Below, piece after piece: positions 4,917 to 63,310 of a DNA stretch of 64,000 nucleotides. The translations under genes were made by a program, and so were the position numbers. The notes under the pieces are model-generated. The model was not told the DNA's origin and searched no databases. It saw only the letters and a list, made by a program, of their open reading frames with translations. The stretch is from Pseudomonadota bacterium. GTDB lineage: Bacteria > Pseudomonadota > Gammaproteobacteria > Burkholderiales > Methylophilaceae. Each line of letters opens with the position of its first letter. Position 1 is the stretch's first letter. The stretch lies in NCBI GenBank assembly GCA_020053735.1, contig JAGVMP010000015.1:12708-76707 (forward strand), given 5' to 3'.

Positions 4917-4983
4917 ATTTATATTATCCAAAACTTCTTTAAATTTATCTTACTTAGTAAACCGTTACGAGCTACATCAATAC

Positions 4984-5085
4984 AAGGCGCACGGCACACA
5001 GGAACCAGAATGTACGAATAGGTACATGAGGATTCCGAGTACAATTTTAATTAAAAGCCTGCAACACCCAAGTGATGCGGCGCAG
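4984..5085 (+). repeat. Family B repeat
   Basis: aaggcgcacgg..atgtac gaatag gtacat gaggattccgagtac. Confidence 0.8.
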
Positions 5086-8758: not shown

Positions 8759-9067
8759 ATGAAACTAAACACCAAACAAATAGCGCATTTACGCGGCTTA
8801 GCGCATAGCTTAAACCCTGTGGTGATGATAGGCAACAACGGGCTGACCGACAATATTATCAAGGAAATTGAGCTTAATTTAAACGCGCATGAGTTGATTA
8901 AAATTCAAGTGGCGGGCGAGGACCGCGATGCGCGCAAAGCCATCTATGTTGAAATTTGCAGCAAAACCAACGCGGTTGCGGTGCATCACATCGGCAAGCA
9001 GCTGGTCGTTTATCGTGCCAGTGAAACAGTGAAAGAAAAAGCGAAAATTCACATTCCTAAACTATAA
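8759..9067 (+). CDS. yhbY: CRM-domain ribosome assembly RNA-binding protein
   Basis: 'LRGLAHSLNPVVMIG', 'HELIKI', 'IGKQLVVYR'; divergent from rlmE; ATG at 8759. Confidence 0.92.
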   Translation: MKLNTKQIAHLRGLAHSLNPVVMIGNNGLTDNIIKEIELNLNAHELIKIQVAGEDRDARKAIYVEICSKTNAVAVHHIGKQLVVYRASETVKEKAKIHIPKL

Positions 9068-9071
9068 AAAA

Positions 9072-9229
9072 CATGCCCTGCAAACCAATATCCATGCGGC
9101 CTATCAGGCATGAATAACCAGCTTTGACGTGTAAATAACCAACTTTTAGTTGGTATATTTCACGGGCAAGCCAAATACTGGCTTAGCTGGTATATTCTGC
9201 GGGGACAACCCTTGCGGTTGCAGAGCATG
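9072..9229. repeat. Family A long form with nested hairpin modules
   Basis: catgccctgca..gcagagcatg termini; internal duplicated hairpin. Confidence 0.85.
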
Positions 9230-9258
9230 CCTTTTGATGTTGATTTAAAAAGTGCTTT

Positions 9259-17519: not shown

Positions 17520-18602
17520 TTAAAAACCAATCTTCTCTAACATGCGCTCAAAGTAGCCTGGCGCCTCTTCTGGCGGTAATGGTGCTTCTATTTTTTTTGG
17601 TTTAGCCACCGTTTTATTACTAGTAGCATCGCTTTTAATTTCGGCTTCTGGCGCCGCTTCAATTGGTGCTTGTAGGTTATTCAAATCTAGATTTCGATCC
17701 ATTCTGAAAATCAATGGCTCGCCTGCTTTGGCTGCCGGCATAGGCACAGGTGCTTTTGGCTCGTCAGCCTGCGGCGCTTCCACCTGCGGGGCCTCTATGA
17801 GTTGAGGCGTTTCTACAGGCTTTACTTTTTCCGCAGGCGCCGCTTCTGTCACGGGAGCTTCAATTACTGGTGCTGTAATGACAGGCGCTTCTACAGCTGG
17901 TGCGCTAGTCGCAGGCGCATCTAACTTTGGCGCTTCAACTACTGGAACATCAGTTGCTGGCACATCAACTGCAGGTGCATCAGGCGCCAGCACACCACCA
18001 ATTGGCACCGCTAATACAGATGGTACCTCTGTCGTTGGCGCTTCGCCAGCGGGTGCATCTGCACTGCTTGCTGGTGCATCGCCAGCAGGCGCTTGGATAT
18101 TGGCTTCTGGGGCATCAGTTTTTTCTCGCGCGGCGGGCAGCTTCTCATTTTCTTTTGCAGGCTCATCACTTTTCCAGAACTTCAGCTTCTCTGACCAGCT
18201 TTTTTCTTGTTTAGGTTTTGGTTCTACCGTAATGGTTTTCGCAACGCTCGACTCATTGCCAGTAGCCGCCCCAGCTGTGCCCTGTGGCACGACATCACCA
18301 CGTACCTTGGTCAGTAAATCTTTATCAAAATCCAAAATCACACGTCGCTGCTCGACAATTTTGCCTGCTTGACGCAATTGATAAAAATAATCCCAACGGT
18401 CTTTATGAAAGCTATCCACAATGAGTGGCGAGCCCATAATAAATTTGACCTGCGATTTAGTCATGCCAGGCCGCAATTGCAGTAGCATCTTAGAGGTGAC
18501 TACATTACCTTGCTGGATATCCATTTTAAATGGTTTTATGGTAGGAATAGTCGAACCGCAACCAGCCAACAAGAGGGAAAGAACGATTAAAAAATAGCGC
18601 AT
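17520..18602 (-). CDS. bamE: Outer membrane assembly lipoprotein BamE with long Pro/Ala/Glu-rich C-terminal extension
   Basis: Lipobox LLAGC, 'DIQQGN', 'PGMTKSQVKFIMGSP', 'RWDY'; dapB-bamE/fur synteny. Confidence 0.92.
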   Translation of the reverse strand: MRYFLIVLSLLLAGCGSTIPTIKPFKMDIQQGNVVTSKMLLQLRPGMTKSQVKFIMGSPLIVDSFHKDRWDYFYQLRQAGKIVEQRRVILDFDKDLLTKVRGDVVPQGTAGAATGNESSVAKTITVEPKPKQEKSWSEKLKFWKSDEPAKENEKLPAAREKTDAPEANIQAPAGDAPASSADAPAGEAPTTEVPSVLAVPIGGVLAPDAPAVDVPATDVPVVEAPKLDAPATSAPAVEAPVITAPVIEAPVTEAAPAEKVKPVETPQLIEAPQVEAPQADEPKAPVPMPAAKAGEPLIFRMDRNLDLNNLQAPIEAAPEAEIKSDATSNKTVAKPKKIEAPLPPEEAPGYFERMLEKIGF

Positions 18603-22715: not shown

Positions 22716-22778
22716 AGATTGCTTTGCTTCACTCGCAATGACAAATCAAAATGGATTCCCGCTTTCGCGGGAATGACG
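22716..22778 (-). repeat. Family C tandem units
   Basis: gattgctttgcttcactcgcaatgac plus ggattcccgctttcgcgggaatgacg. Confidence 0.85.
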
Positions 22779-22788
22779 GTGCGGAAGT

Positions 22789-24477: not shown

Positions 24478-24501
24478 AACTAAACTTAAAATCTTTCAAT
24501 T

Positions 24502-24599
24502 CCGTCATTCCCGCGCAGGCGGGAATCCATTGTAAATGGTAACTTTTTCTGGATTCCGTGGTTCGCCATTAAAACCAATGGCTCCCGTCGGAATGACGG
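24502..24599. repeat. Family C inverted doublet
   Basis: ccgtcattcccgcgcaggcgggaatcc ... ggattccg..cggaatgacgg. Confidence 0.85.
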
Positions 24600-25786: not shown

Positions 25787-26800
25787 ATGGATAAACGCGC
25801 GCAAATCTTACTTAAAACCTTGGTAGAACATTACATTAGTGATGGTCAGCCCATTGGCTCGCGCACCCTCTTGCAGCACAGTGGCTTGGATGTAAGCCCT
25901 GCAACGATTCGGAATGTGATGAGCGATTTGGAGCACTTGGGCTTTATCGCCAGCCCGCACACATCAGCCGGACGCATCCCCACACAAAAAGGTTACCGCC
26001 TGTTTGTGGATACCTTGCTGACCGTGCAACCGCTAGAAACCAAAGCGGTAAACCAGTTAAGAAGCGGCTTAAGCTCACCCAACCAAAACGAGCTGATTAA
26101 CAGTGCAGCCGATATGCTGTCACAACTCACCCAGTTTGCTGGTTTGGTAATGATACCCAAGCGTAAAGCTTTAAGTTTCAAGCATTTAGAGTTTCTACCG
26201 CTGACCGAAAAAAGGATATTAGTCATCATCGTCACCAGTGACGGCAACGTGCAAAACCGCATCATTTTGAGTGAAAAGCCATACTCAGCCAGTGAACTCA
26301 CTCAGGCTAGCAACTATTTTAATGCCAATTTTTCTGGCCAAACCTTTGATGAGGTGCAGCAAAAACTGCATACCGAACTCAAACAAATGCAAACAGATAT
26401 GAACGTGTTGATGAACGCCGCCCTGCAGGCCAATATCCATGCGGGTGATGGCAATGGTGTTGTGATAGCGGGTGAACGTAACTTACTGAATATTGACGAA
26501 CTTTCTACCAATGTGAATAGCCTACGCAAATTGTTCGAGATTTTTGAGCGCAGAACCTCGTTGATGCAACTTTTGGACAACAGCCAGCACGCAGAAGGTA
26601 TCCAAATTTTTATCGGTGGCGAAAGTGGTTATCTTCCGTTAGATGAATGCAGCATGGTGACCGCGCCGTATGAGGCCGATGGTCAAGTCGTCGGCACACT
26701 AGGTGTAATAGGTCCGACTAGAATGGCCTATGAACGGGTGATACCGATTGTAGATGTCACAGCAAAATTACTATCAAACGCTCTGAGTTCAGGTGCTTAA
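25787..26800 (+). CDS. hrcA: Heat-inducible transcription repressor HrcA
   Basis: 'PIGSRTL', 'SPATIRNVMSDLE', 'PHTSAGRIPT', 'GVIGPTRMAY'. Confidence 0.97.
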   Translation: MDKRAQILLKTLVEHYISDGQPIGSRTLLQHSGLDVSPATIRNVMSDLEHLGFIASPHTSAGRIPTQKGYRLFVDTLLTVQPLETKAVNQLRSGLSSPNQNELINSAADMLSQLTQFAGLVMIPKRKALSFKHLEFLPLTEKRILVIIVTSDGNVQNRIILSEKPYSASELTQASNYFNANFSGQTFDEVQQKLHTELKQMQTDMNVLMNAALQANIHAGDGNGVVIAGERNLLNIDELSTNVNSLRKLFEIFERRTSLMQLLDNSQHAEGIQIFIGGESGYLPLDECSMVTAPYEADGQVVGTLGVIGPTRMAYERVIPIVDVTAKLLSNALSSGA

Positions 26801-26806
26801 GTGCTT

Positions 26807-26892
26807 ACGCCTTCACATCACGTCGTTACGCGGTACTCGTCCCCTCGACGTACTAGGTGTACAGTCTCGGGTTCTACGTTCCGTGCGCCTTG
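26807..26892 (-). repeat. Family B repeat
   Basis: Reverse complement aaggcgcacggaacg..gtac..gtac..gagg..gagtaccgcgtaacg. Confidence 0.8.
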
Positions 26893-26975
26893 TGCTGTTT
26901 TGCCTCAGCTGCTTAATCATACTGAATCAATATTTTCAAATGCATATTTTTAAAATTCATATTGCTAAGAAAGAC

Positions 26976-28206: not shown

Positions 28207-28277
28207 GCGTTATAATGCATGGCAATATTGCTTTATTCATGAGGGCTTTTATCAATGCATTATTTGGGTTGCAGTAT

Positions 28278-28358
28278 AAGGCGCACGGAACGCAGAAGCC
28301 GAGATGTACGCAGTTGTACATCGAGGCTACGAGTACCGCGTAACGCAGTAATGCGCCC
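28278..28358 (+). repeat. Family B repeat
   Basis: aaggcgcacggaacgcagaagccgagatgtacgcagttgtacatcgaggctacgagtaccgcgtaacgcag. Confidence 0.85.
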
Positions 28359-29430: not shown

Positions 29431-29523
29431 AAGGCGTACAGCTTTTAAATTGAAGGTCTGCAGAAGCCGAAACAGTATGTTTTATACGGTGAGGTTGCGA
29501 GCACCGCGCAACGCTGTAATGCG
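29431..29523 (+). repeat. Family B repeat
   Basis: aaggcg..gcagaagccga..gtat gtttt atac..gaggttgcgagcaccgcgcaacgctg. Confidence 0.75.
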
Positions 29524-30136: not shown

Positions 30137-30216
30137 CATCTGCATCGTTACGCGGTGCTCGCAAGCTCCCTGTACAACCCCGTACTATCTCGCTTTCTGT
30201 GCTCCGTGCGCCTTGC
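30137..30216 (-). repeat. Family B repeat
   Basis: Reverse complement aaggcgcacggagcacag..gtac..gtac..gcgagcaccgcgtaacg. Confidence 0.8.
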
Positions 30217-30255
30217 ATATAGGCCGCTCGCAACGGTTTTATAAAGTATTCATTT

Positions 30256-31725: not shown

Positions 31726-32750
31726 TGGCTGACAAAATTCTAGTCCTTGGTCCAGCGTGGGTAGGCGATATGGTACTGGCACAAAGCCTATTTAAAACGC
31801 TCAAACTCAACCGACCTGATTGCATTATTGACGTTGCTGCTCCCGCGTGGACATTGCCTTTACTAGAGCGTATGCCAGAAGTTTCTGGCAAGATTGCTCT
31901 GCCATTTAAACATGGCGAACTGGCTTTTTGGCAGCGCATTCAATTTGGCAAAAGCTTAAAAAATGCAGGTTACAGTCAAGCAATCATTCTCACCAACTCG
32001 TTTAAATCAGCTTTGCTGCCTTGGGCGGCCAGCATAGCAAAACGCACCAGCTTTTTAGGTGAAATGCGCTACGGTTTAATTAACGATATCCGCCCACTTG
32101 ATAAAACCAAGCTCAAAAAAACGGTAGAACGGTTTGTGACACTAGGTTTAGATAAAGATGTATCTTTGCCAAAAACCATTCCAAACCCATACTTAAACAG
32201 TGCCCCAGAAGCCGCATGGATATTGGCTTACAGGCTAGGTGTTTTGGATAATAAGAGTAAAGTGCTGGGCATTTGCCCAGGTGCAGAGTACGGTGAGGCC
32301 AAACGCTGGCCAGCCGAATACTATGCCGAAGTAGCCAATGATGCACTCAAAAAGGGTTGGCAAGTGTTATTGTTTGGGTCAGATAAAGACATGCCAGTAA
32401 CCACTCAAATCAACCAGCTTACGCAAAATAAATGTGTTGATTTAGGTGGCAAAACTAAACTGGGCGAAGCGATAGATTTGATGTCGATTTGCGATACCGT
32501 GATTAGCAACGACTCTGGTTTGATGCATGTGGCCGCCGCGCTAAGTAATGAAACTAGCGCAAAAAAACTCATCGCCATATTTGGCAGCAGCGACCCTTAC
32601 CACACGCCACCTATGCAGCCAGATGCAGTGATAGAATATTTAGGCTTAAGTTGCAGCCCTTGCTTTAAGCGTGAGTGCCCGCTTAAAGATGAGGCGCATT
32701 TAGCTTGCTTAAAAAATATCACGCCGCAGTTGATTGCCACTAAAATTTAG
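31725..32750 (+). CDS. waaF: LPS heptosyltransferase II
   Basis: 'PAWVGDMV', 'PGAEYGEAKRWP', 'NDSGLMHVAAA'. Confidence 0.94.
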   Translation: MADKILVLGPAWVGDMVLAQSLFKTLKLNRPDCIIDVAAPAWTLPLLERMPEVSGKIALPFKHGELAFWQRIQFGKSLKNAGYSQAIILTNSFKSALLPWAASIAKRTSFLGEMRYGLINDIRPLDKTKLKKTVERFVTLGLDKDVSLPKTIPNPYLNSAPEAAWILAYRLGVLDNKSKVLGICPGAEYGEAKRWPAEYYAEVANDALKKGWQVLLFGSDKDMPVTTQINQLTQNKCVDLGGKTKLGEAIDLMSICDTVISNDSGLMHVAAALSNETSAKKLIAIFGSSDPYHTPPMQPDAVIEYLGLSCSPCFKRECPLKDEAHLACLKNITPQLIATKI

Positions 32751-37098: not shown

Positions 37099-38112
37099 TT
37101 ATAGCTTATAGTATTTTTTATACCAAATCGAAAATTTTTCTATCCCAGTTTTCAAGTCTGTGTTTGGTTTAAACCCTACCCACGCCTCTAGTGCGCTAGT
37201 GTCGGCATAAGTCGCTTTTACATCCCCTGCTTGTATGGGTAAAAATTCTTTTTGCGCTTTTCTGTCCAACGCATCCTCTAAAAAACCGATAAAATCGAGT
37301 AGTTTTTCAGGATGATTATTCCCAATATTGAACAGTCTGTAAGGCGCATGGATATTGCCTCCCAGAGCATCGATTTGAGGCATTATAAGTTTGGCTGGTG
37401 GTTTATGTAGCACACGAATGACAGCTTCGACAATGTCGTCGATATAAGTAAAATCGCGCATCATATCGCCATAATTAAACACTTTAATTGGCTTATTGTT
37501 GAGAATAGCATCTGCAAATAAAAATGGCGCCATATCTGGCCTGCCCCATGGCCCATACACAGTAAAGAAGCGTAATCCAGTCGTTGGGATACCATACAGA
37601 TGGCTGTAGGTATGTGCCATCAATTCATTGGCTTTTTTCGTTGCTGCATACAAACTCACGGGGTGATCGACATTATCTGTCTCAGAAAATGGCAATTTAG
37701 TATTGCCGCCGTATACGCTAGATGAGCTTGCATACACCAAATGTTGCGGTTTAATCGCGCGGCACGCCTCTAGCACATTGGTAAACGCAACGATGTTGCT
37801 GCTGATATATGCATGTGGATTTTCGAGCGAGTAACGCACCCCCGCTTGCGCCGCGAGATGAATGACGCTATCTGGATTTTCACCTACAAATAATCGAGCT
37901 GTTGCAAGCTGCTCAGCTAAATCAAGCTTAACAAATTTAAAGTTTTTGGCATTTGGGTGCGCTTGAATGGTTTCAAGTCGCGCTTCTTTTAAACTTAGGT
38001 CGTAATAATCATTCATATTATCGACTCCAACCACGACGTCACCACGTGTCAACAACTGAAGCGCTGTATGAAACCCAATAAATCCTGCTACCCCTGTTAA
38101 TAATACTTTCAT
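37099..38112 (-). CDS. UDP-glucuronate 4-epimerase
   Basis: 'TGVAGFIG', '[11 protein letters not shown]', 'YAATKKANE', '[10 protein letters not shown]'; follows ugd. Confidence 0.88.
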
Positions 38113-43457: not shown

Positions 43458-43514
43458 GTTTAAGTTTTTACCTAAATTAAATAGTTGGAATAATAATGAT
43501 ATTTAAATTTAAAT

Positions 43515-43542
43515 TGGATTCCCGCCTGCGCGGGAATGACGG
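43515..43542 (-). repeat. Family C single unit
   Basis: tggattcccgcctgcgcgggaatgacgg. Confidence 0.85.
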
Positions 43543-43559
43543 AATGAGAAATACTTGAA

Positions 43560-45665: not shown

Positions 45666-47384
45666 TTATTTTTTAGTCACCAGTATGTCTTCAAGCATGA
45701 GATACTCTAAATCACAGCCGTAAAACATATTCAGCGCATCGGTCGGGCTACAAATCATGGGCTCACCGCGACGATTGAGGGAAGTATTCAGTACCACTGC
45801 GTTGCCGCGCAATTTCTCTAAATGCTCAATCAATTCGTAATAACGCGGATTGGTCTCACGTGTCACCACTTGCGCACGCGCCGTGCCATCTTCATGTACC
45901 ACTTCAGGGATACGCGAATTCCACGCGGGGTTTACATCAAATGTAAACGTCATATAGGGTGCAGGATGATTCGTTTGCAGAATATCCTCCGCCACCGTAT
46001 CTAACATACTCGGGCAGAATGGACGCCAGCGTTCACGGTATTTAATTTGTGCGTTAATGCGATCCGCCACACCAGCGTAACTCGGGTCACCCAAAATACT
46101 GCGGCAGCCAAGTGAGCGCGGGCCAAACTCCATGCGGCCTTGAAACCATGCTAGCGGATTGCCAGCAGCTAACAATTCAGCCGCTTTTTGTGGGAAATTT
46201 TCAACTTTTGTGAAAATTGGCTTATTCGGGTGCGCCTCGCACGCAGCCACACATTCGGCACTGGTAAAACTGGGGCCAAGGTAAGCATGTTGCATCTTGT
46301 AGATAGTTTCACCTTCCAGATGCGCAGCATAAGTCGCCGCACCTAAGCTGGTGCCGTTGTCACCAGACGCGGGCTGCACGAACAGTTCTTTGACATGCGG
46401 CATGGCGATAATACGTTGATTTAATTTAACATTCAGTGCAACACCGCCCGCCATCGCCACTTTGCCCGTTTCCTTAATGATATCACCCAAATAATAGGCT
46501 ATCATTTGCAGGGCTAAATCTTCCAGCAGCTTTTGCACACTGGCAGCATAGTGAATATACGGGTCATCAATCTCATCGCCGCTACGTTTTGGCCCCAGCC
46601 AGTCGATGAGTTTTTGCGTAAAGTAAAAACCTTTACCGTCTTCTTTATAGCGCCGCAAACCAACTACATTGACATAGTCGGTATTGACAATCAGTTCGCC
46701 GTTTTCAAACTTAGCCAAACGGCTAAAATCGTATTTGCTAGCGTCGCCAAAAGGCGCCATGCCCATTACTTTAAATTCGCCATCCAGCATATCAAAACCC
46801 AAAAACTCGGTAAGGGCGCCGTATAAGCCGCCTAATGAATCAGGGTCGTAAAACTCTTTAATTTTGTGGATTTTGCCATGCTCGCCATAGCCAAAAAAGG
46901 TGGTCGCGTATTCGCCTTTACCATCGATACCAACGATGGCCGTTTTTTCAGTAAATCCGCTTAAATGATATGCGCTAGAGGCATGCGCTAAGTGATGCTC
47001 AACCGGTACGAACTTGGCCTTAGTTAAGCCTAGATCTTGCATCAATTTTAATGATTTATCACGGTTGCGGCGAAAGCGCCGATTACCATTAAATATGGCG
47101 TCTAAAGCGCGATCTGGCGCATACCAATAACGTTTGGCATAATGCCAGCGCGCGCTGGTCGAAAGTGGAATTTCCGCATACGGAAATGCGACAATATCAA
47201 CATCTTCTGGCTTAACACCCGCTTGTTTTAGACAGAATTGAGCGGCTTCATAAGGGAATTTATTTTTGGCGTGTTTGTCGCGAATAAAGCGCTCTTCTTC
47301 CGCCGCTGCAATAATTTTTCCATCAATTAAAATTGCGGCCGAGGCATCATGCCCCAACGCGCCCGAAAGACCTAATGTAATCAT
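45666..47384 (-). CDS. Carbamoyltransferase (NodU/CmcH family)
   Basis: 'HDASAA', 'EEERF', 'EHHLAHASSAY', 'GGVALN', 'EFGPRSLG.RSIL', 'LNTSLN'; start at MITLG (47384). Confidence 0.92.
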   Translation of the reverse strand: MITLGLSGALGHDASAAILIDGKIIAAAEEERFIRDKHAKNKFPYEAAQFCLKQAGVKPEDVDIVAFPYAEIPLSTSARWHYAKRYWYAPDRALDAIFNGNRRFRRNRDKSLKLMQDLGLTKAKFVPVEHHLAHASSAYHLSGFTEKTAIVGIDGKGEYATTFFGYGEHGKIHKIKEFYDPDSLGGLYGALTEFLGFDMLDGEFKVMGMAPFGDASKYDFSRLAKFENGELIVNTDYVNVVGLRRYKEDGKGFYFTQKLIDWLGPKRSGDEIDDPYIHYAASVQKLLEDLALQMIAYYLGDIIKETGKVAMAGGVALNVKLNQRIIAMPHVKELFVQPASGDNGTSLGAATYAAHLEGETIYKMQHAYLGPSFTSAECVAACEAHPNKPIFTKVENFPQKAAELLAAGNPLAWFQGRMEFGPRSLGCRSILGDPSYAGVADRINAQIKYRERWRPFCPSMLDTVAEDILQTNHPAPYMTFTFDVNPAWNSRIPEVVHEDGTARAQVVTRETNPRYYELIEHLEKLRGNAVVLNTSLNRRGEPMICSPTDALNMFYGCDLEYLMLEDILVTKK

Positions 47385-47394
47385 CCTAATACAC

Positions 47395-48927
47395 TCATTC
47401 ACTCATCTCTTTATTAGCATAGATCCCCGCTTTAATTAAAATTGCGGGGTCGGGATAAATCACTTTAAATGTTTTCACGAACGCATTATACAGGGCTGGC
47501 TCATTCTGCCAATTTTGCATAAAACGATGCAAATCTTTTAAATGCGCAACACTGCTGGTGAAATGAGTGCGGTGTTGGCGCATGCTATCTAAATCTATCA
47601 GCAATGGCTGCGCACCTTGCATTTTGATGTTGGTGGCTTTCATATCGCCATGCGAAATATGCAGCAGATAAAGTTTGTAAAAAAGCGTTGCAATATTTTT
47701 TACTGCCTCAGCGCGCTGGGATTTATTTTGTGTTTGAGCAAAATATTGGGCAACATCGGGTGCATCAGTATATTCTGCTAAAAAATAAGCTTTGCCTCTA
47801 AACACTCCCAAACTACGATGCTCGATGAGCGCAATTGGCTTTGCTGTTGCAATCTTCAATATTTTAAGCCGATGTGCATTCGCCCATGACGCCGCAGCAC
47901 GGCTTTGACGAAAGGCGCGACTGATGCCATGCCAAAAGTTTTTGATGTTATAGCGCTTAATGACTATCTTTTTATCATCCATTTCTACAAGCGCGACTGT
48001 GCAAGTGTTGCTATTTTTAAGTAGATTCTGAGTACCAATTAACGCATCTAAATCCTCAGTAAAGTCGGTATTTTCCGCATCGCTGGAAGCCAATATCCAT
48101 GCGCCTTTCATGCATGAATAACCAGCTTTAGCTGGTATATTCTGCGGGGACGACCCCTGCGGTTGCAGAGCATACTTTTTCACATCTGTGCACTGCCGAA
48201 AAACTTTTTTATCTGCATAGGCAGATGCTGCCTTGATACGATGTCGCTCAGATAAACGGCTGATATCTGAAGCTACAAGCTCAACACTAGGGTTCGCCAT
48301 GTGATATTGCATTAAAAGTTTAGGCATCCATGCTAAAACCTCGAGCACATCAAATTTGGACAAAAGAACGGCAAAATTTGATGAAGCTTGTTGGTAAGAA
48401 ATAACATCGTATTGGCGAATACCATCGCCATCAATGCTATAAAGTTGCTGACCATCAAACAAAAAGTTTTTAAGATATAAATCTGTTTGCATTAAACGCG
48501 CATGGTGATGCTGACCAAGCGTCTGAGCAAGCATAGAGGCCAACTCTAATCGTTGTGACGCATTACGCTGCACCCATACTGATTCGACATTCTGACTATG
48601 AGGGATAGCTTCAAATATCAATATTTCTGTATCATCAAGCGTGTCAATAAGCAATAATTTTGAAGTGGCGATACTTGCGGCAATGAGTGCGTCCACACCT
48701 TGTTTATCTCTTTGTGCATAGCGCTTAGCGCCATTGCCAATAAACAACTTAGCATACACCGCCTGCCCTTTCCAAACACCTCGGCACACCAAACGCTTAT
48801 TGGCTACTCGACGTACCACTTGCTCCACTATAAGCGCGTCACCATTACTTAGCCAAAGCGAAAATGTTTGATTCTCATCATTTGATAACGCAGACAAATT
48901 GTTTAGCAAAGCGAATTGATCTGCCAT
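47395..48927 (-). CDS. Two-domain LPS kinase (Kdo/WaaP family)
   Basis: Two kinase-like halves ('QTDLYLKNFL..IDGD' and 'HGDMKATNI..IDLD'); start MADQ overlaps upstream stop (TAATG). Confidence 0.8.
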   Translation of the reverse strand: MADQFALLNNLSALSNDENQTFSLWLSNGDALIVEQVVRRVANKRLVCRGVWKGQAVYAKLFIGNGAKRYAQRDKQGVDALIAASIATSKLLLIDTLDDTEILIFEAIPHSQNVESVWVQRNASQRLELASMLAQTLGQHHHARLMQTDLYLKNFLFDGQQLYSIDGDGIRQYDVISYQQASSNFAVLLSKFDVLEVLAWMPKLLMQYHMANPSVELVASDISRLSERHRIKAASAYADKKVFRQCTDVKKYALQPQGSSPQNIPAKAGYSCMKGAWILASSDAENTDFTEDLDALIGTQNLLKNSNTCTVALVEMDDKKIVIKRYNIKNFWHGISRAFRQSRAAASWANAHRLKILKIATAKPIALIEHRSLGVFRGKAYFLAEYTDAPDVAQYFAQTQNKSQRAEAVKNIATLFYKLYLLHISHGDMKATNIKMQGAQPLLIDLDSMRQHRTHFTSSVAHLKDLHRFMQNWQNEPALYNAFVKTFKVIYPDPAILIKAGIYANKEMSE

Positions 48928-50471
48928 TACTTGGATACTATCTTCCATAATGCCCAGCGGCCAATTTGCTTTTCCTGCATCACAACTCCATTTTCTAGTA
49001 CGGGCTTATCTTTGCTCAATAGCCATAATGTTTTATTTACCACCAATAACTGTTCTAGCTGCTTCCCACCCAAAGGCTGGATGGGGCGATTAGCATAAAA
49101 TGACACTGCCCCATCTCCAGGCTTGGCTTGATATAAAGGCTTAGCTTGATAGAGCGCTTGAGACGAAGTTGAATCAATAGCAACTGATTGCACTAGCTGC
49201 TTAATGTCGTCTTTTTCTGTGTCTTTAGTGATGTACTGCTCCGCAAATAAATAAATAAACGTTGCAAATACTGCCGCTAATAAAACAGGTGTCTGAGGAG
49301 CGGGAATATTCAACTCACGTTTTAACAACCAAGGACCAAGCAATAATAAGGGCCAAATCAGAACGGTTGGCAAGCTCAACACATGCGTCAAGCCTTGCTT
49401 ACGTATTCCGACCACAAACAACGCAATCACAGCAATCGCTAATAAGCAAAAAATGACGCGGTTAAATTGATAAAACCTGCCTTGCGCCACTTGTAAATAA
49501 TAGCCGATAAGAATCGCAATCGATGGTAAAAAAAGTAAGGCATATTGCGTTTGTTTGTTAACAGTAAACGTGAGCAACACGAATACGACTAGCAACCAAA
49601 TAATAGAGAAATGCACAACCTTAGGTAACGGTCGATGTTGATACAACCATATACCCGCAGGGACCAACAGCAAACTCCATGGTGCAAAAAACTCTACAGC
49701 ATGCGCTAAATACCAGTAAATCGGCTGCTGATGTGTGCCAGATACAAACGTTTCATCTACCTGACGCGATACAAATTGTTGCGCCACATCTGGCATACTG
49801 ATTAAAATCCATGCATACCATGCAAATGCGCTGACTAAAAAAATCATTATCCCAGTTGGGTTAATGATTGCTTTAACCGTGTGCAATTGTTTAGTCGCAA
49901 ACGCGTAACCCAACACAGTCATTAATGGAATGGCAATGCCCGCAGGGCCTTTTGTCAAAAAACCAAGCCCTAATGCCAGCATGAACAAATAAACTGTTTT
50001 TTTGTTTGGTGACTCAAAAAGCTTGAACCCAGCAAAGCAAGCTAGAGAGACAAAAAACAATAACGTAGCATCCGCCTCAGCACTTCTAAAATAGCGCATC
50101 CCTAAGAAGCTTGTACACATCACCAACACAGCATTCGCTGCGGCTTGAATATTTAAGGTATCTTTTAACCAAATAAACAACAAGCAAGCTGAAAGTAATG
50201 CAAACAAAAGAGAAGGCACGCGTGCTGCCGCCTCACTCACACCAAATAATTTATAGCTAAGCGCAGTCGTCCAATAGGTCAACGGCGGTTTTTGTAAGCG
50301 TAGCTCGCCATTATAGTGTGGCACCACCCAATCATTACGCACCACCATTTCACGTGCGGTCTCAGCTATTCGAGCCTCTTGTATTTTATCAATAGCGCGA
50401 CCCGCTGAGCCAAACAACAAACCAATCAATATAACACTTAACAATCCGACGCTAATTTTCAGCATATACAC
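48927..50471 (-). CDS. Second ArnT-like GT-C glycosyltransferase
   Basis: 'QEARIAETAREM', 'KPPLTYW', 'ARVPS', 'LTKGP'. Confidence 0.85.
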   Translation of the reverse strand: MYMLKISVGLLSVILIGLLFGSAGRAIDKIQEARIAETAREMVVRNDWVVPHYNGELRLQKPPLTYWTTALSYKLFGVSEAAARVPSLLFALLSACLLFIWLKDTLNIQAAANAVLVMCTSFLGMRYFRSAEADATLLFFVSLACFAGFKLFESPNKKTVYLFMLALGLGFLTKGPAGIAIPLMTVLGYAFATKQLHTVKAIINPTGIMIFLVSAFAWYAWILISMPDVAQQFVSRQVDETFVSGTHQQPIYWYLAHAVEFFAPWSLLLVPAGIWLYQHRPLPKVVHFSIIWLLVVFVLLTFTVNKQTQYALLFLPSIAILIGYYLQVAQGRFYQFNRVIFCLLAIAVIALFVVGIRKQGLTHVLSLPTVLIWPLLLLGPWLLKRELNIPAPQTPVLLAAVFATFIYLFAEQYITKDTEKDDIKQLVQSVAIDSTSSQALYQAKPLYQAKPGDGAVSFYANRPIQPLGGKQLEQLLVVNKTLWLLSKDKPVLENGVVMQEKQIGRWALWKIVSK

Positions 50472-50560
50472 TCACTTATTTTCAACCTCACATCACAGAT
50501 TATATCAGCCCAGCCGAGGCTAGTCGCTAAGTATGGATGCGCTATGTTATGATTTTATAT

Positions 50561-51430
50561 ATGTTACAAGTCATTTTTAAGCCTCTTAAATACCTATCTC
50601 TAAAGACTATCCATCAATACGGAACGCTTATTGGTCAGTTAGTGTTTTTATTATCTCCACAAATAAAACATCTGGCTTATAACAACTTAAAGCAAAGCAG
50701 CCTGATTAATCAAAAAATGGACTTAAACAAAACAATCCAAATCAACGCTAGGGAATTTGGTAAGTCCATTGTAGAAAGTTTGGCAATGTGGCAAAAAAGT
50801 GAATCTGAGCTGATCTCTTTGGTAAAAAGCTGTTCAAACTGGCATATAGTTGAAGAGGCCTTAAATAAAGGCAAGGGGATTATTTTTCTTACGCCTCATT
50901 TAGGCTGCTTTGAAATTACTTCTATTTATTACGGCAATCAGCACCCCATTACTGTGTTATATCGTCCGCCAAAAATCAAGTGGTTAGAGCGCCTTATTCT
51001 TAATGGCCGTGAGCGCACTGGCGTGACGCTAGCAGCCGCCAATGCCAGTGGTGTGCGTAAACTATTGCAAGCACTAAAACGTGGTGAAGCGATTGGTATT
51101 TTGCCCGACCAGATCCCCGCAGCAGGGGAAGGCGAATGGGCAGATTTTTTTGGCAAACCTGCCTATACTATGAGTTTAGCCAGTAAGCTGGCAGAGAAAA
51201 CGGGTGCAACTGTGATTATGGGCTTTGGCGAGCGCTTAGCACACGGTGCAGGCTACGCGCTGCATTTAAGGAAAATAGACAGCATTGCCACGCCCGCCTT
51301 GCTGAATAAAGCGATTGAACAACAAATTGCCCAAAAACCTAGCCAATATTTGTGGAGTTACAACCGTTACAAAGTGAGAGGCCACGCACTTAAAAAACAT
51401 ACACTTAAAAAAACTCAGCAAGATAATTAG
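50561..51430 (+). CDS. lpxL: Lipid A late acyltransferase (LpxL/HtrB family)
   Basis: 'LTPHLGCFE', 'ILPDQ', 'FFGKPA', 'QYLWSYNRYK'; exact start uncertain (50537-50561). Confidence 0.75.
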   Translation: MLQVIFKPLKYLSLKTIHQYGTLIGQLVFLLSPQIKHLAYNNLKQSSLINQKMDLNKTIQINAREFGKSIVESLAMWQKSESELISLVKSCSNWHIVEEALNKGKGIIFLTPHLGCFEITSIYYGNQHPITVLYRPPKIKWLERLILNGRERTGVTLAAANASGVRKLLQALKRGEAIGILPDQIPAAGEGEWADFFGKPAYTMSLASKLAEKTGATVIMGFGERLAHGAGYALHLRKIDSIATPALLNKAIEQQIAQKPSQYLWSYNRYKVRGHALKKHTLKKTQQDN

Positions 51431-51448
51431 CTGGCTGTAGTAATAAGT

Positions 51449-52279
51449 CTAGTTAATTGCAGATTTTTCTTTGGCTAAACGCTGTTGAAATTTTGTGCTG
51501 TTAAACTTGGCAAATAACTTGTTCGCACGCGCCTCCACTTTTGCCCAAAAAGCAGCTGTTTGTGGTAAATAATGTTGCTTGAATATGCCTAAATCTTGGG
51601 CACCTAGATCTTGCGCACATAGGCCATTTTGCAACATCGAGAAATATAAACCGGCAATGTCTTTCATCACGGCATCACCATTCGGTGACTGATTTTGCAG
51701 CATGCGATGCAAATCGATTAAGTGCAAATCGTAATGATTGGCTGCAGCGTTTTGACGGCTTAGCACAAAATGGCATAGATAAAAATCGCGGTGACACAAA
51801 CCAGCACTGTGTAGTTTGCTGGCAATGTCAGCCACAGCCGTCTGCATTAAGCGTTTAGAATCTTCAAGCATAGGGTAAGACTGGCTATCCATCAGCATTT
51901 CTTCTAACGAGACAATGTCGCCCAAATCTTCCGTTAACACAAAAGATTGCATAGTTGCAGGGTTGCAACCGCGTTGGCCATAAGCCACCAATGGCGTGCT
52001 AGCAATACCTATCTCACTTAACTTTTGTAATGCGCGTACTTCAGTCATGGCGCCTAAAATCGGCAGTTTTAAGCTCAGCAGATTTTTAAAAACCTCACCC
52101 CAACCCACGCCAAAATGCTGTTTGATGAAGTAATATTTTCCGCCAAGCTCGGTACGCATGGTCTTGCGACCAGGTACATCGCGAAATGCCTTGCCTTGCA
52201 ACTGCATGCAAGCTTCAAACACATCGCCTTTTAGATGCGCTGAAATAGCTTCTGGCACATAAAGCACTTGCTTAACCAT
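51449..52279 (-). CDS. waaP: LPS core heptose kinase
   Basis: 'YFIKQH', 'CHRDFYLCHF', 'LIDLHR', 'KDIAGLYFS'; directly after waaG. Confidence 0.85.
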   Translation of the reverse strand: MVKQVLYVPEAISAHLKGDVFEACMQLQGKAFRDVPGRKTMRTELGGKYYFIKQHFGVGWGEVFKNLLSLKLPILGAMTEVRALQKLSEIGIASTPLVAYGQRGCNPATMQSFVLTEDLGDIVSLEEMLMDSQSYPMLEDSKRLMQTAVADIASKLHSAGLCHRDFYLCHFVLSRQNAAANHYDLHLIDLHRMLQNQSPNGDAVMKDIAGLYFSMLQNGLCAQDLGAQDLGIFKQHYLPQTAAFWAKVEARANKLFAKFNSTKFQQRLAKEKSAIN

Positions 52280-53435
52280 GTTGCCCTTTCTTGGATTGTG
52301 CTTTCTTAGCTTCTGGCCGCTTTTCACCAGCAAGCCGAATCAAAATTTCCGCTTCTGCACTGCCATCATTTTCTTGCATGATTTTTTGCGCTTGTTTTAA
52401 GCCGTTATCTGCCCACATTTGTTTGTGCTCGCTTGTGCGCATTTGCGCAAATAGCGCATTAAAATTGGCTTGCTCAAACGGCATTTCGCATACCAAGCCT
52501 GCATTAGCCTCACGCACATAATGTGCATAGCCGCAACTTGCAGTCACTAGCATTGGCGTGGCGCTGGCCATGCCTTCCAAAATCACTAGCCCGGTATTCT
52601 CACGGTAAGCTGGGTGAATACACACATCGGCGCCTTGCATCAGTTGCGGAATATCTGGCCGGCCTTTTGAAATCACGACGTTCTCAGCAACTCCCAAATT
52701 TTGCGCCAGCTTGGTAAATTGCCTAGGGTTGTCTTGGCCTACAGCGATCAAGCGGGTATTGGCGCGCAACGCATCGGGCAAAGCCTTTAACGCTAAAATT
52801 GCGCGATCCAAACCTTTCATGGCAAAGCCAGAGCCTGTCAGTAAATAGACGAAATCATTCGCAGCAAAATTAAATTGTTGCCGCAAATAAGCGCGTGCTT
52901 CTGCTTTGGGTTTTAATACAAAACGCTCGGGCAACAAACACGGTGGAATATAATGAAAGCGTCTGTCTTGCGTGCCATACCAGTGCTGGAAATGCGGTTT
53001 CTCAGCCAACGAAACGGCTAAAATCTCCGTAGCAGATTCGCCAGAAAACACCGCTTTTTCACAAGTAGCAAACCACTTAAAACGCGGCAAAAGCCGATAC
53101 AAAAAACTTCGCTGCTGGTGTGCGCGCTCAATAAAACAAGGGTCGGCGGCAAAGTGTGCATCCAAGCCTGCCATACGGTTATAGCCAAAAATATAATCGA
53201 AACTCTCTGTTTTTAAAAAAGTTGCCTCAATAAATTTTTGATAGCGCTGGTAATTGAATAGTCCTGTTTGCGGTAGCACATGCACTTCAATGCCAACTGG
53301 TGCTTCGCCCTGCCAGCTCATGGTAAACACTTCCACCGTGTGTCCACGTTTCAGCAGCTCATTCGCGGTGCGCAACATATCGCGCTGCATGCCACCGAAG
53401 GGAAAGTATTTAAATATAATAAAAGCAAATTTCAT
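52272..53435 (-). CDS. waaG: LPS core GT4 hexosyltransferase (WaaG/WapG-like)
   Basis: 'KYFPFGGMQRD', 'GSGFAMKGLDR', 'HPAYRENTG'; start MKFAF (53435). Confidence 0.85.
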   Translation of the reverse strand: MKFAFIIFKYFPFGGMQRDMLRTANELLKRGHTVEVFTMSWQGEAPVGIEVHVLPQTGLFNYQRYQKFIEATFLKTESFDYIFGYNRMAGLDAHFAADPCFIERAHQQRSFLYRLLPRFKWFATCEKAVFSGESATEILAVSLAEKPHFQHWYGTQDRRFHYIPPCLLPERFVLKPKAEARAYLRQQFNFAANDFVYLLTGSGFAMKGLDRAILALKALPDALRANTRLIAVGQDNPRQFTKLAQNLGVAENVVISKGRPDIPQLMQGADVCIHPAYRENTGLVILEGMASATPMLVTASCGYAHYVREANAGLVCEMPFEQANFNALFAQMRTSEHKQMWADNGLKQAQKIMQENDGSAEAEILIRLAGEKRPEAKKAQSKKGQHG

Positions 53436-53454
53436 AAAGCCCTCAGCACAGCGA

Positions 53455-53550
53455 CTGCGCTTGTGCATACTTTGTTAAAAATTGGCTCAAAATCCTCATG
53501 TATGGGCATATACATTCCAGTTTTTCGCCAATTTTTGCCTCGTCAGCACT
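53455..53550 (-). repeat. Family B repeat (hybrid subtype)
   Basis: Reverse complement gacgaggc..ggaatgtat..atacatgaggatt..aacaaagtat. Confidence 0.75.
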
Positions 53551-53599
53551 GCGCTCGTAACACTGTGCCAAGGCCTTTAATCGCATTTTATGCGAAAAT

Positions 53600-54577
53600 A
53601 TGACAATGAAACGAATTCTTCTTGTAAAAACCTCATCTTTGGGCGATGTCATCCACAATTTGCCGGTGGTAAACGATATTTTGCAGCATGCCCCACAAGC
53701 GCATATCGATTGGCTGGTAGAAGAGTCCTTTGCAGATATTCCACACTTACATACAGGCATAAGCCATGTATTTACGCTGGCTTTTCGGCGTTGGCGCAAG
53801 CAGCTATTCAACAAGAAAACTTGGCAAGAAATTGCTGCGTTTAAGCAATTAATCCAACAGAGTCATTACGATGCCATTATCGATACACAAGGTTTACTTA
53901 AAAGCGCCCTGGCCATGCATTACGCGCACGGCACAAAGCATGGTTACGATAAACAGTCCATCCGTGAGCCACTAGCGAGTTACTTTTACGATAAAACCTA
54001 TGCGATTTCTTATCAGCAGCATGCGGTCATGCGTAACCGTGCGCTGTGTGCGTTAAGTTTAGGCTATGAAACCCCAACCGATGCGCCTGATTACGGCATG
54101 CCCACAAAACGCATGGCTATTCATCCGCATACTAGTGATTTGCAGTCTGATTATATGATTGCCTTGCACGGCACCAGCCGTGATAGCAAGTTGTGGCCAG
54201 TTGAACATTGGGTAGCCTTAGGCAAGCAACTCGCGCTGCAAAACCTGAACATGGTGTTACCTTGGGCAAGCGGCGCTGAACATACACGTGCAAATTTAAT
54301 TTCTACTCAACTATCCAACGCTGTTGTATTGCCCAAGTTGAGCATCAGTGAACTTGCAGGCGTCATTGCCAATGCCAAAGCTGCTATTGGTGTAGATACT
54401 GGTTTATCACACCTTGCCGGCGCGCTCAATATTCCCACCGTCGCCATTTACACTGACACCAACCCTGCACTCACTGGCGTGGTGGCGGGCAAACTCGCAC
54501 CCGCCATCAACTTGGGCGGCATTCACCAAACACCCACTGTAGAGGACGTTTTAGGCGCTTTAAAACCCCATATTTAA
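53600..54577 (+). CDS. waaC: LPS heptosyltransferase I
   Basis: 'VKTSSLGDVIH', 'IDTQGLLKS', 'HAVMRNR', 'GVDTGLSHLA'. Confidence 0.94.
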   Translation: MTMKRILLVKTSSLGDVIHNLPVVNDILQHAPQAHIDWLVEESFADIPHLHTGISHVFTLAFRRWRKQLFNKKTWQEIAAFKQLIQQSHYDAIIDTQGLLKSALAMHYAHGTKHGYDKQSIREPLASYFYDKTYAISYQQHAVMRNRALCALSLGYETPTDAPDYGMPTKRMAIHPHTSDLQSDYMIALHGTSRDSKLWPVEHWVALGKQLALQNLNMVLPWASGAEHTRANLISTQLSNAVVLPKLSISELAGVIANAKAAIGVDTGLSHLAGALNIPTVAIYTDTNPALTGVVAGKLAPAINLGGIHQTPTVEDVLGALKPHI

Positions 54578-54593
54578 CTACGCCTTAATTTGT

Positions 54594-54689
54594 ATGCCCT
54601 GCAGAGCTCATGAATATTGGGTTTCACGCATGAATAACCAGCTTTAGCTGGTATATTCTGCGGGGACAACCCCTGCGGTTGCAGGGCAT
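54594..54689. repeat. Family A long form (96 bp)
   Basis: TIR atgccctgca/tgcagggcat; internal hairpins accagct/agctggt and gggg/cccc. Confidence 0.9.
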
Positions 54690-54741
54690 CATTTTATTCT
54701 CGACGCTATTTAAGCAGCTACAAACAAAATGCAAACCAGCT

Positions 54742-54769
54742 CTTGAAATCAACTTCACTATCCCCATTT
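54742..54769 (+). promoter_or_regulatory. sigma32 (RpoH) heat-shock promoter of grpE
   Basis: CTTGAAA-13 nt-CCCCATTT, matches consensus, about 50 bp before grpE. Confidence 0.8.
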
Positions 54770-54806
54770 TCTGTGTAGTGTTATTAAAAACATAACTAAA
54801 GATTTT

Positions 54807-55343
54807 TTGGGGAAACACATGCAAGCAGATGAAAACAATCAAGACCAAGACAAAAATCAGGCGCAAGAGGCGCAGCCAGAAGTAGCGACGGAGCAAACCG
54901 CCGAAGAAAAAATCACGGCACTGCAGGCTGCGCTAGAAGAAGCCAAAGCCAGCGTGCTGTATATTAAAGCAGAAGGTGAAAATATACGCCGCCGCGCTAT
55001 GGATGATATCGACAAAGCGCGTAAATTTGCACTAGAAAAATTCTCAAACGAATTACTGGCGGTAAAAGATAGTTTAGACGCCGCTTTAAACGTGGGCAAT
55101 GCCGATGTAGAAAGCTACAAAAATGGCGTAGAACTGACTGCAAAACAACTCAGCGCGGTGTTTGAGAAATTCAATATCGCAGAAGTAAATCCAGTGGGCG
55201 AGAAATTCGATCCGAATAAACACCAAGCGATTTCAATGCTAGAGAACAGTGGCGAGCCAAATACTGTGACCAGCGTGCTACAAAAAGGCTACATCCTGAA
55301 TGATCGCGTATTGAGGCCAGCGTTGGTGATGGTGGCAAAGTAA
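54807..55343 (+). CDS. grpE: Nucleotide exchange factor GrpE
   Basis: 'AEGENIRRR', 'FDPNKHQA', '[16 protein letters not shown]'; ATG at 54819 is an alternative start. Confidence 0.97.
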
Positions 55344-55389
55344 ACTGCAAAATAAAATTCGAAAAAATAGCCTTAGATTAAACAAGGCT

Positions 55390-55417
55390 ATTGAAAATAA
55401 CAAAACCACCCGCATTA
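55390..55417 (+). promoter_or_regulatory. Possible sigma32 promoter of dnaK
   Basis: ATTGAAA-13 nt-CCGCATTA, one or two mismatches to consensus. Confidence 0.45.
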
Positions 55418-55434
55418 TAGATTTATGCACAAGC

Positions 55435-55528
55435 ATTGTGTCGAGATAGTCAGACGCGAAGTGGTGGCGTAGACAGTACAAGCTAGTACGACAAGCCGCC
55501 ACGACAAAGTATGACTGATTGACACAAG
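55435..55528 (+). repeat. Family B repeat upstream of dnaK
   Basis: gtcagacg..gtagacagtac aagcta gtacgacaag..acaaagtatgac; flanking IR ttgtgtc/gacacaa. Confidence 0.8.
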
Positions 55529-60249: not shown

Positions 60250-60366
60250 TGGATTCTTCACTACACTCAGAATGACAATTCAAAATGGATTCCCGCTTTC
60301 GCACCACAGGCACTCCGATTTACTAAGTGCTTAAGCACTTAGTAAAGTCGTATGCGGGAATGGCGG
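60250..60366 (-). repeat. Family C tandem units, second with an internal insertion
   Basis: ggattc..gaatgac plus ggattcccgctttcgc-[51 bp]-gcgggaatggcgg. Confidence 0.8.
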
Positions 60367-62514: not shown

Positions 62515-62574
62515 GTTTGTGTCAGTTGAAAGTTACATTTGCATGAAAAATGTGACAGGAACACTAAATAAAAT

Positions 62575-62677
62575 ATGCCCTACAAGGCAATATCCATGCG
62601 GGTTTCAGAGCATATATTTTGGCGTATGAATAATGTGCATTTGCACATATATTCTACGGACAAGACCCTTGCGGTCT
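62575..62677. repeat. Family A long-form variant
   Basis: atgccctacaaggcaatatccatgcgggtttcagagcat plus module 2 with atgtgca/tgcacat stem. Confidence 0.85.
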
Positions 62678-62946
62678 TATGTTTCAATTAAACTATTTTG
62701 AATCGCAATTAACTCTGCATTTGCATCACTAAAGTCTTCATATTTTTTGCCGTTTGTTCTAGCATACCAATACTTACTGTTCCACGCATCACCTTCAATT
62801 TTATGTAATACCGCGTGTATCCAATTGGCCATTGGGTCTGAGTAATCTTGCGCAATATTGTGCGACTTGTCCCAATCCCCCTCCAGCGCGACCTGTACTG
62901 CAATTAATAATGCTGGCTTATTCATTCTCTGACTCAAAATAGCCAA
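62677..62946 (-). CDS. Conserved hypothetical protein
   Basis: 'GDWDKSH', 'WIHAVLHKIEGD.WN..YWY'. Confidence 0.65.
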   Translation of the reverse strand: MAILSQRMNKPALLIAVQVALEGDWDKSHNIAQDYSDPMANWIHAVLHKIEGDAWNSKYWYARTNGKKYEDFSDANAELIAIQNSLIET

Positions 62947-63235: not shown

Positions 63236-63310
63236 AAGGCGCAAGGCGCGCAGAAACCGGAATGTATGGGGTATACATGAGGATTGCGAGCACCGCGTAA
63301 CGTAGCAATT
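63236..63310 (+). repeat. Family B repeat
   Basis: aaggcgc x2..ggaatgtat..atacatgaggattgcgagcaccgcgtaacg. Confidence 0.8.

Follow-up and report, generated by a model that had tools for sequence, protein, structure and literature searches.

How does a sequence that recurs between genes come to lie, in frame, inside a gene for a lipopolysaccharide (LPS) kinase, how much of it was actually inserted there, and what becomes of the protein? The question is raised by a 64,000-nt stretch of DNA (hereafter, the window) from a bacterium of the family Methylophilaceae (assembly GCA_020053735.1, contig JAGVMP010000015.1, positions 12,708 to 76,707), in which a tandem kinase-like protein of 517 amino acids (aa) is encoded in an LPS-core locus by an open reading frame (ORF) on the minus strand at 47395..48948. 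A first-pass annotation of the window had pointed out, within this gene, a ~95-bp segment at 48079-48173 that resembles an intergenic segment at 54594-54689, and had interpreted the whole of it as a recent insertion that adds about 30 aa to a linker. The segment does fall within the 517-aa ORF, the peptide was quoted correctly and no stop codon interrupts the frame, but the size, composition and age of the insertion turn out to be different.

We find two layers in the 95-bp feature, namely, a ~38-nt palindrome resembling the repetitive extragenic palindromes (REPs) and a discrete 57-nt unit, denoted module 2, only the latter of which is the actual insertion. The arrangement is probably best explained as a two-layer insertion of selfish repeats in a functional gene, in which the insert is, most likely, a tolerated passenger.

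A 57-nt module within a resident palindrome

In the plus-strand reading, the resident short REP-like unit starts at 48077..48105 with the arm GCATCGCTGGAAGCC and the conserved loop and core CCAATATCCATGCGCC, the core showing one mismatch to the family 15-mer CCAATATCCATGCGG, and is completed, according to the sequence comparison, by the second arm, TTGCAGAGCATA, at 48163..48174. On the coding strand, the first part specifies G282-A291 (GAWILASSDA), including the strand 282-288 of the structural model, and the second arm reads TAT GCT CTG CAA and specifies Y259-Q262, at the end of the preceding beta strand. Module 2, TTTCATGCATGAATAACCAGCTTTAGCTGGTATATTCTGCGGGGACGACCCCTGCGG, occupies 48106..48162 and is delimited both by the gap at empty sites and by the match to 54622-54678. 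It encodes the 19 residues P263-K281 (PQGSSPQNIPAKAGYSCMK), folds into two small hairpins and is free of stop codons in one of the six frames, which is exactly the frame used by the kinase gene. Tryptic peptides of the repeat-encoded segment are YALQPQGSSPQNIPAK and AGYSCMK.

The gene and the intergenic copy share module 2 almost to the letter, with 55 of the 57 positions identical between 48106-48162 and 54622-54678, and 93% identity over the slightly longer stretches 48106-48179 and 54622-54695. The window contains exactly two copies of a 39-mer, GCATGAATAACCAGCTTTAGCTGGTATATTCTGCGGGGA, one at 48112 and one at 54628, against zero expected from shuffled sequences. The near-exact match to 54594-54689 reported previously thus holds for module 2 and fails for module 1, where the 11-nt palindrome loop of 48079-48105 is inverted with respect to the intergenic copy, resulting in a poor match. 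In the gene as well as in the intergenic copy, and with either loop orientation, module 2 is located directly 5' of the TTGCAG arm. The left flanks of the module differ between the two copies (..CCATGCGCC in the gene and ..GAATATTGGG in the intergenic copy), and therefore there is no target duplication; a candidate 5-nt duplication (TGCGG) at the module 2 junctions was rejected for the same reason, given the distinct left flank of the intergenic copy (..ATATTGGG).

Empty and filled sites

To delineate the insert among relatives, 120 homologs were compared over the segment bounded by the conserved motifs KKVFRxC and NTCTV. Its length is 55-56 aa in most homologs; members of a "W(I/V)L" subgroup have 53 aa, and the window gene and two others, P0002/L001 and P0005/L081 (hereafter, L001 and L081), have 72 aa, so that the insert is carried by three of the 120 orthologs. 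The first-pass annotation had allowed that orthologs might be equally long at this site regardless of the repeat; with 55-56 aa in most of them and 72 aa in those with the insert, they are not. In ortholog L084, the empty site reads TAT GCT CTG CAA|GGC GCA TGG ATA TTG GCT TCC AGC GAT; the window is identical on either side of the bar and contains exactly 57 extra nucleotides at the bar. The 48077..48105 flank is identical in the empty-site orthologs L084, L085 and L086. A biofilm-metagenome contig from run X7, ~89% identical on the N-half side, skips 48108-48165 (58 nt) and has one C instead, and thus represents an empty allele in a fairly close relative. An alignment of orthologs, which had been expected to reveal a clean gap of ~30 aa, thus yields a gap that is indeed clean and is 19 aa (57 nt) in size. 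The other ~13 aa (YALQ...GAWILASSD) come from the short REP-like unit that is present in insert-less orthologs as well, so the notion that the entire ~95 bp was inserted, with a gain of about 30 aa, has to be abandoned.

The orthologs without module 2 contain an in-frame REP unit that matches the consensus in 27-30 of 35 positions, compared to at most 21 elsewhere in these genes. Distant orthologs match the REP consensus no better than background, yet the region is equally long in them. The group of orthologs with F(Y/I)AAS at this site matches the palindrome with the loop flipped (26/35 in L082, with weaker matches in the others).

The same pattern of presence and absence is observed at the intergenic site, 54594. 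There, a contig from run X4 skips 54621-54678 (58 nt) and has one added C, so that what remains is a perfect short palindrome; of two X1 contigs, one contains a further short variant, and the other is missing 160 nt and contains no element. Given the presence and absence at two independent loci, module 2 is a precise, separately gained or lost unit of 57 nt. The filled in-gene site is additionally spanned, with both flanks, by an X4 metagenome contig. The module 2 copies in the kinase genes of the window, L001 and L081 are 95-96% identical at the DNA level, and two of the three differences between these copies alter an amino acid.

Different small insertions are found at the same linker site in other orthologs (L062 3675-3861, P0008, P0014/L087, P0026/L003 and L059 3722-3983), including a 27-nt unit (ATGLKHSRAS), 4-aa inserts and a ~30-aa insert in L059; because of these, the 5' arm of the resident palindrome can be considered an indel hot spot. 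The loop varies as well: kinase orthologs encode either AWIL or F(Y/I)AA at the loop site (48090-48104 vs. 54606-54620), and both loop orientations relative to the asymmetric module 2 occur, with loose ends also in runs X1, X2 and X5. These observations suggest that the loop flips with respect to the inverted arms around it, with quasipalindrome template switching as one possible route.

The insert lies between two kinase-like domains

The host protein belongs to the Kdo/WaaP LPS kinases, as indicated by the PF06293 domain, the catalytic motifs and the LPS-core context. The Pfam match covers aa 312-492 (E-value 1.6e-16), with the Kdo/WaaP score in the C-terminal half only. This half retains the HGD..N..DLD catalytic motifs, and the N-terminal half has a TD..KN..DGD motif; all family-invariant residues are intact, including H433, G434, D435, N440, D452 and D454. 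Both halves are kinase-like in fold in an AlphaFold model with a predicted local distance difference test (pLDDT) value of 90.8 and a predicted template modeling (pTM) score of 0.88. The best fold matches in PDB are TYK2/JAK pseudokinase-kinase tandems and PRPK/Bud32, and a collinear alignment of the two halves, although weak at 21% identity, has the catalytic motifs in register. The neighboring genes encode PMT_2, a carbamoyltransferase, a lipid A acyltransferase, GT9 and further Kdo kinases, and the nearest public relatives of the kinase, as well as those of HrcA encoded in the same window, come from Methylotenera, Methylophilus or metagenome-assembled genomes (MAGs) of Methylophilaceae, in keeping with an uncultured, Methylotenera-like source of the window.

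The exception in this otherwise confident model is the coil formed by residues 261-280, with pLDDT of 48-58, between the strands 256-260 (VKKYA) and 282-288 (GAWILAS). The AlphaFold model and the fold search agree in placing the site between the two kinase halves, where the first-pass annotation had located it, and its proposal of an insertion tolerated in a linker is borne out by the clean empty sites (L084 and X7) and by the low-confidence coil. Because the position is the turn between the strands that start the second kinase-like domain, the 19 extra residues are predicted to make up a flexible loop on the protein surface, where the two domains meet. No promoter or terminator signal was detected at the element in the kinase gene, and accordingly, the possibility of an internal terminator or promoter splitting the gene was rejected. 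At the RNA level, the insert-bearing mRNA has a local fold of -44 kcal/mol (z-score -3.0), compared to a z-score of +0.3 for the empty site.

Two observations on other members of the kinase family are worth recording. In the C-terminal kinase domain of the P0081 ortholog, PNAR(G/E)L(N/G)SA-like tandem repeats make up an insertion of ~27 aa (alignment A2, columns 435-462). Contig L035 (NZ_AEXL02000126.1), filed under the archaeon "Candidatus Nitrosopumilus salarius BD31", encodes a tandem LPS kinase of the Methylophilaceae type with 46% identity to the query; most probably, this contig is a contaminant of the archaeal assembly.

A high-copy, mosaic repeat family

The window contains approximately 16 copies of the ~38-nt palindrome, with the consensus ATGCCCTGCAAGCC-AATATCCATGC-GGCTTGCAGGGCAT. 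The palindrome has a 13-bp stem and an 11-nt loop (dG -15.9 kcal/mol, z-score -5.7), and its best-conserved part is the 15-mer CCAATATCCATGCGG, which comprises the loop and the inner stem and is conserved above the stems. The intergenic long form at 54594..54689 (plus strand), defined by alignment and folding, consists of the REP arms, an inverted loop and module 2 (54622-54678), with the module located between the loop and the 3' arm; the entire copy folds as a single structure closed by the outer arms (dG -25.8 kcal/mol, z-score -5.2). An extended intergenic mosaic at 9063..9234 (plus strand) combines a REP unit, extra hairpin modules and the 3' part of module 2, the latter 72% identical to 48106-48179. 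In a diverged intergenic copy at 62565..62691 (plus strand), a complete short REP is followed by a module-2-like unit (61% identical) with a compensatorily swapped central stem, TGTGCATTTGCACA instead of CCAGCTTTAGCTGG. Comparison of 62618-62691 with 48106-48162 shows that GAATAA..TATATTC is kept and CCAGCT/AGCTGG is replaced by TGTGCA/TGCACA, a fully compensatory change, which suggests that structure rather than sequence is maintained in this copy.

In eight freshwater, sediment and biofilm metagenomes, the contig depth on the element is 30-1775x vs. ~2-49x on the flanks, and for the in-gene module 2, the depth is 30-885x vs. ~2-49x across the rest of the kinase gene; furthermore, the metagenome contigs on the element continue into many different flanks. 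On the strength of this pile-up and the many flanks, the element is a high-copy dispersed repeat, and in being a high-copy, dispersed, imperfect palindrome of 20-40 nt, it resembles the classical REPs. On metagenome contigs, module 2 also turns up, its boundaries unchanged, in other intergenic mosaics from which the palindrome is absent, and we therefore regard it as a separate module of a system resembling bacterial interspersed mosaic elements (BIMEs).

The family has no match among Rfam families at E ≤ 1 in a scan of 47000-55500. In 13 copies from the window, each taken with 22 nt on both sides of the core, GTAG and CTAC are absent from the 12 nt at either end of this context, and CGTC and GACG are absent from the ends as well. 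Thus, the family fits neither of the known REP superfamilies, with their GTAG and CGTC end tags. In the literature collection searched, no paper links repetitive extragenic palindromes with Methylophilaceae. Nor does the element resemble a miniature inverted-repeat transposable element: the outer arms are inverted repeats, but there is no duplication around module 2 at the two loci.

The short units are not confined to intergenic regions. Besides the kinase gene, they are located in genes encoding a BamE-domain protein, RecN, HrcA, a GT9 heptosyltransferase and an NAD-epimerase (18078-18122, 24188-24235, 26422-26446, 32201-32245 and 37333-37377), which brings the number of solid in-gene copies to six, with approximately 40% of the window copies being intragenic. 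A seventh, weak candidate in FolP (5376-5420) has four core mismatches and resembles a native FolP motif, and was set aside as probably a chance similarity. All solid copies share one phase, encoding ALQA-NIHA-ACRA or, in the other orientation, ALQA-AWIL-ACRA. By our own arithmetic, the probability of six copies sharing a phase by chance is (1/3)^5, or ~0.004. None of the six frames of the short unit contains a stop codon. In HrcA, GT9 and the kinase, the stretch encoded by the repeat replaces an equally long variable segment of the orthologs, with no gain of 13 aa.

Two other repeat families share the window. The second has the core ATTCCCGC-N-GCGGGAAT(GACGG), at 22743-22779, 24499-24540, 43506-43545 and 60277-60313, which we take to have the form of the dRS3 repeat of the Neisseria intergenic mosaic elements (NIME; ATTCCC-N8-GGGAAT). 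The third, dispersed family consists of CGTTACGCGGTGCTCGCAA and its complement, along with AAGGCGCACGGA motifs, is intergenic and occurs in both orientations (4954-5042, 26816-26897, 28272-28353, 29475-29520, 30141-30244 and 63264-63309).

Age of the insert and mosaicism of the locus

L001, the closest ortholog, with 84% aa identity to the host protein, bears the insert and shares with the window a derived G in module 2. The two are connected by a recombination tract of ~2.7 kb (48100..50750), encompassing the PMT_2 gene, the kinase N-half and the element, in which the DNA identity to L001 is 91-94%, compared to 59-89% past the left end and 76-92% (patchy) past the right end; the right end of the tract coincides with the element. 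From codon ~258 on, L085 and L007 are as close to the window as L001 is, or closer, and the kinase N-half is close only to L001, L082 and L083. Because the relatives on the N- and C-sides differ, the kinase gene is a recombinant mosaic, with the element at the tract end.

The L081 gene (59% aa identity), in which the synonymous sites of the host gene are saturated, has a copy close to the consensus at this site, and over 73 nt, that copy shows 94.5% identity to the intergenic one in the window. All copies stay near the family consensus, and for that reason, identity to the intergenic copy is no reliable clock. The argument from high identity to a recent insertion therefore falls, as the site is filled in L001, in the distant L081 and in the X4 contig. 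On the available alignments, the insert appears to be older than the split from the L001 lineage; it is polymorphic among relatives with ~90% identity and is neither private to the strain nor very recent. The MAG JANNOS01 contains both L001 and a second allele fragment, L069 (64% identity, FYAASS type), which points to either a strain mixture in the bin or a paralog.

Relation to known palindromic repeats

Transposons of the IS200/IS605 type and their miniature derivatives, the palindrome-associated transposable elements (PATEs), insert beside a hairpin at a fixed position, without target-site duplication, and have subterminal hairpins. In these respects, module 2, which is located beside a hairpin at a fixed position, with no duplication and with small hairpins of its own, is similar, but it is just 57 nt long, and no transposase or cleavage motif was identified here. 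Uptake signal sequences (USS) of Pasteurellaceae and DNA uptake sequences (DUS) of Neisseriaceae occur at a density of about one per kb, whereas the 10-16 copies in 64 kb here amount to approximately one per 4-6 kb. The resemblance to USS and DUS consists of a conserved short core, a frame bias (six or seven of the seven in-gene copies are in one phase) and replacement without a change of length; apart from the lower density, the differences are the palindromic arms inside the in-gene copies and the insertion/deletion polymorphism of whole units. In coding regions, uptake sequences have a preferred frame, occupy poorly conserved positions and do not change the length, and between genes, they form hairpins (PMC2817400).

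The nearest parallels known are the Rickettsia palindromic elements (RPEs) and intragenic REPs (PMC10969869; PMC3733652). RPEs are short palindromic repeats inserted in frame in housekeeping genes, in several unrelated genes per genome, where the encoded peptide is tolerated at the protein surface (PMC10969869; PMC3733652), and they carry a CGTC end tag (PMC3733652). The family in the kinase gene is likewise palindromic and, like CGTC-tagged REPs and RPEs, resides in frame in several unrelated, conserved housekeeping genes, namely, that of the kinase and five others. However, RPEs are ~100-150 bp in length, in contrast to the 38 nt with a nested 57-nt module and no CGTC found here, and the short units described here add no length to the host proteins. 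The hosts differ as well, with obligate intracellular alphaproteobacteria on the one hand and a free-living freshwater betaproteobacterial methylotroph on the other hand.

The REP/BIME elements and the systems of REP doublets (REPINs) with REP-associated tyrosine transposases (RAYTs) in Enterobacteria and Pseudomonas consist of high-copy, imperfect palindromes of 35-40 nt, located mostly downstream of genes, that form mosaic arrays with other short motifs and show presence/absence polymorphism among strains, with intragenic copies known (PMC3733652; PMC3116915). The GTAG tetranucleotide at one end of a REP is the RAYT cleavage site (PMC3733652). The family in the window is also a high-copy, mosaic palindrome that is polymorphic for presence and absence, but it differs in the lack of GTAG, in the loop rather than the stem being best conserved, and in the location of ~40% of the window copies within genes; no RAYT was seen among the ten small ORFs of the window that were tested.

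Alternative explanations

Under the two-layer insertion that we favor, a ~38-nt REP-like palindrome would long have been part of the tandem-kinase LPS gene in a Methylotenera-like clade, in a phase that gives ALQ(A/G)-AWIL-A(S/C)(S/R). Module 2 of the BIME-like mosaic system would have entered this resident palindrome directly 5' of the TTGCAG arm, without target-site duplication, via a hairpin- or arm-directed process, for which single-strand transposition and templated copying from a long-form copy elsewhere are the candidates. The copy would have survived because it was placed in the sole stop-free frame of six, and we infer that module 2 is a neutral or nearly neutral passenger rather than a functional domain. 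Several points weigh against this account. There is no RAYT or Y1 transposase among the ten small REP-adjacent ORFs of the window searched against Pfam, and the GTAG tag that RAYTs cleave is absent from the family. The in-gene short units are not clean insertions of 13 aa, the REP-less orthologs being equally long, and the presence of the insert in the distant L081 would seem to require an independent gain or a short-patch transfer. Neutrality is predicted solely from the structural model, the stable mRNA structure added by the insert might have consequences, and in an RNA-seq search, the runs with related sequence were all DNA metagenomes, with none containing more than 33% of the words.

As for how module 2 arrived, templated copying rather than transposition is a possibility that we take seriously, though we would not bet on it. 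It would be a sub-mechanism of the favored explanation, in which gene conversion or template switching between a resident short REP and a long-form REP, through the shared arms and loop, makes a transposase unnecessary, homogenizes the copies and places junctions at the element. Several observations fit: the insert is flanked by 29 + 12 nt identical to the empty site, the genome contains long forms that share this junction, the module 2 copies in three divergent genes are ~95% identical to the consensus despite saturated synonymous sites, neither a target duplication nor a transposase is seen, and the recombination tract ends at the element. The homology arms are, however, very short (~12 nt on one side), the occurrence of module 2 outside any REP, with other flanks and the same boundaries, suggests independent movement, and the loop orientation beside module 2 varies, whereas conversion from a copy of the 54594 type would have flipped the in-gene loop.

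The tract end at the element also speaks for a different scheme, in which a signal akin to USS/DUS, or one recognized by a protein or the recombination machinery, accumulates in place; the short unit, and possibly the system in its entirety, would then be such a signal and no transposable REP. The 15-mer CCAATATCCATGCGG would be the functional core, the in-gene copies would arise by mutation and biased recombination with their length unchanged, and module 2 would be an accessory hairpin. This scheme accommodates the conservation of the loop and core above the stems, the single reading phase of six or seven in-gene copies, and the equal-length replacement in a variable region of the kinase, HrcA and GT9, which is the pattern of uptake sequences (PMC2817400). 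Nevertheless, we consider it unlikely: the density of one copy per 4-6 kb is several-fold under that of USS/DUS, the in-gene copies include the palindromic arms and not the core alone, the presence or absence of a whole 160-nt unit at the intergenic site resembles insertion or deletion of an element, and the discrete 57-nt module is left without explanation. A more elaborate version, to which we give the same low credence, holds that the palindrome core is a recombination or uptake signal of freshwater Methylophilaceae, written in place in one tolerated phase, with a flipping loop (NIHA or AWIL), that sets the ends of recombination tracts in surface-polysaccharide loci, with module 2 as a hyper-parasite that targets the hairpin.

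Co-option of the insert is less likely still. It would make the 19-residue loop or the inter-domain mRNA structure functional, for instance, in regulation, in interactions or in pausing translation so as to help the domains fold, which would account for its conservation in three divergent genes. This reading could draw on the 95-96% DNA identity of the insert in the window, L001 and L081, when the host proteins are 84% and 59% identical, and on the stable RNA fold added exactly between the domains. But the intergenic copies are equally conserved, so that the conservation of the insert reflects the repeat family and not the protein; moreover, only three of the 120 orthologs, to the exclusion of close relatives, have the insert, the region is predicted to be disordered, and two of the three differences between the copies change an amino acid. 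The least plausible of the alternatives, to the point of being very improbable, is that metagenome contigs were mis-joined at a high-copy repeat. The element is, indeed, high-copy in the source communities, and the switch in identity to L001 falls exactly at the repeat. Such an artefact is at odds with the filled in-frame junction in four independent assemblies (the window, L001, L081 and the X4 contig) and with the intact frame and invariant residues; the high-identity block has two ends, just one of which is at the repeat, and an assembly chimera is likewise unlikely as the source of the mosaic junction.

Implications

For the analysis of sequence data, the elements described here have two practical consequences: protein annotations are inflated by peptides that the repeats encode, and metagenome assemblies are likely to break, or to become chimeric, at these sites. 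The natural alleles with no, short and long elements at two sites make the mechanism of the 57-nt hairpin insertion directly testable, and the filled and empty kinase genes represent a natural linker-insertion experiment in a tandem kinase. Rickettsia is the best-known case of palindromic repeats being translated within housekeeping proteins, and the phenomenon now extends to a methylotroph that is abundant and free-living in fresh water. That the element and a recombination-tract end coincide in an LPS locus suggests a role for repeats of this kind in shuffling genes for surface structures.

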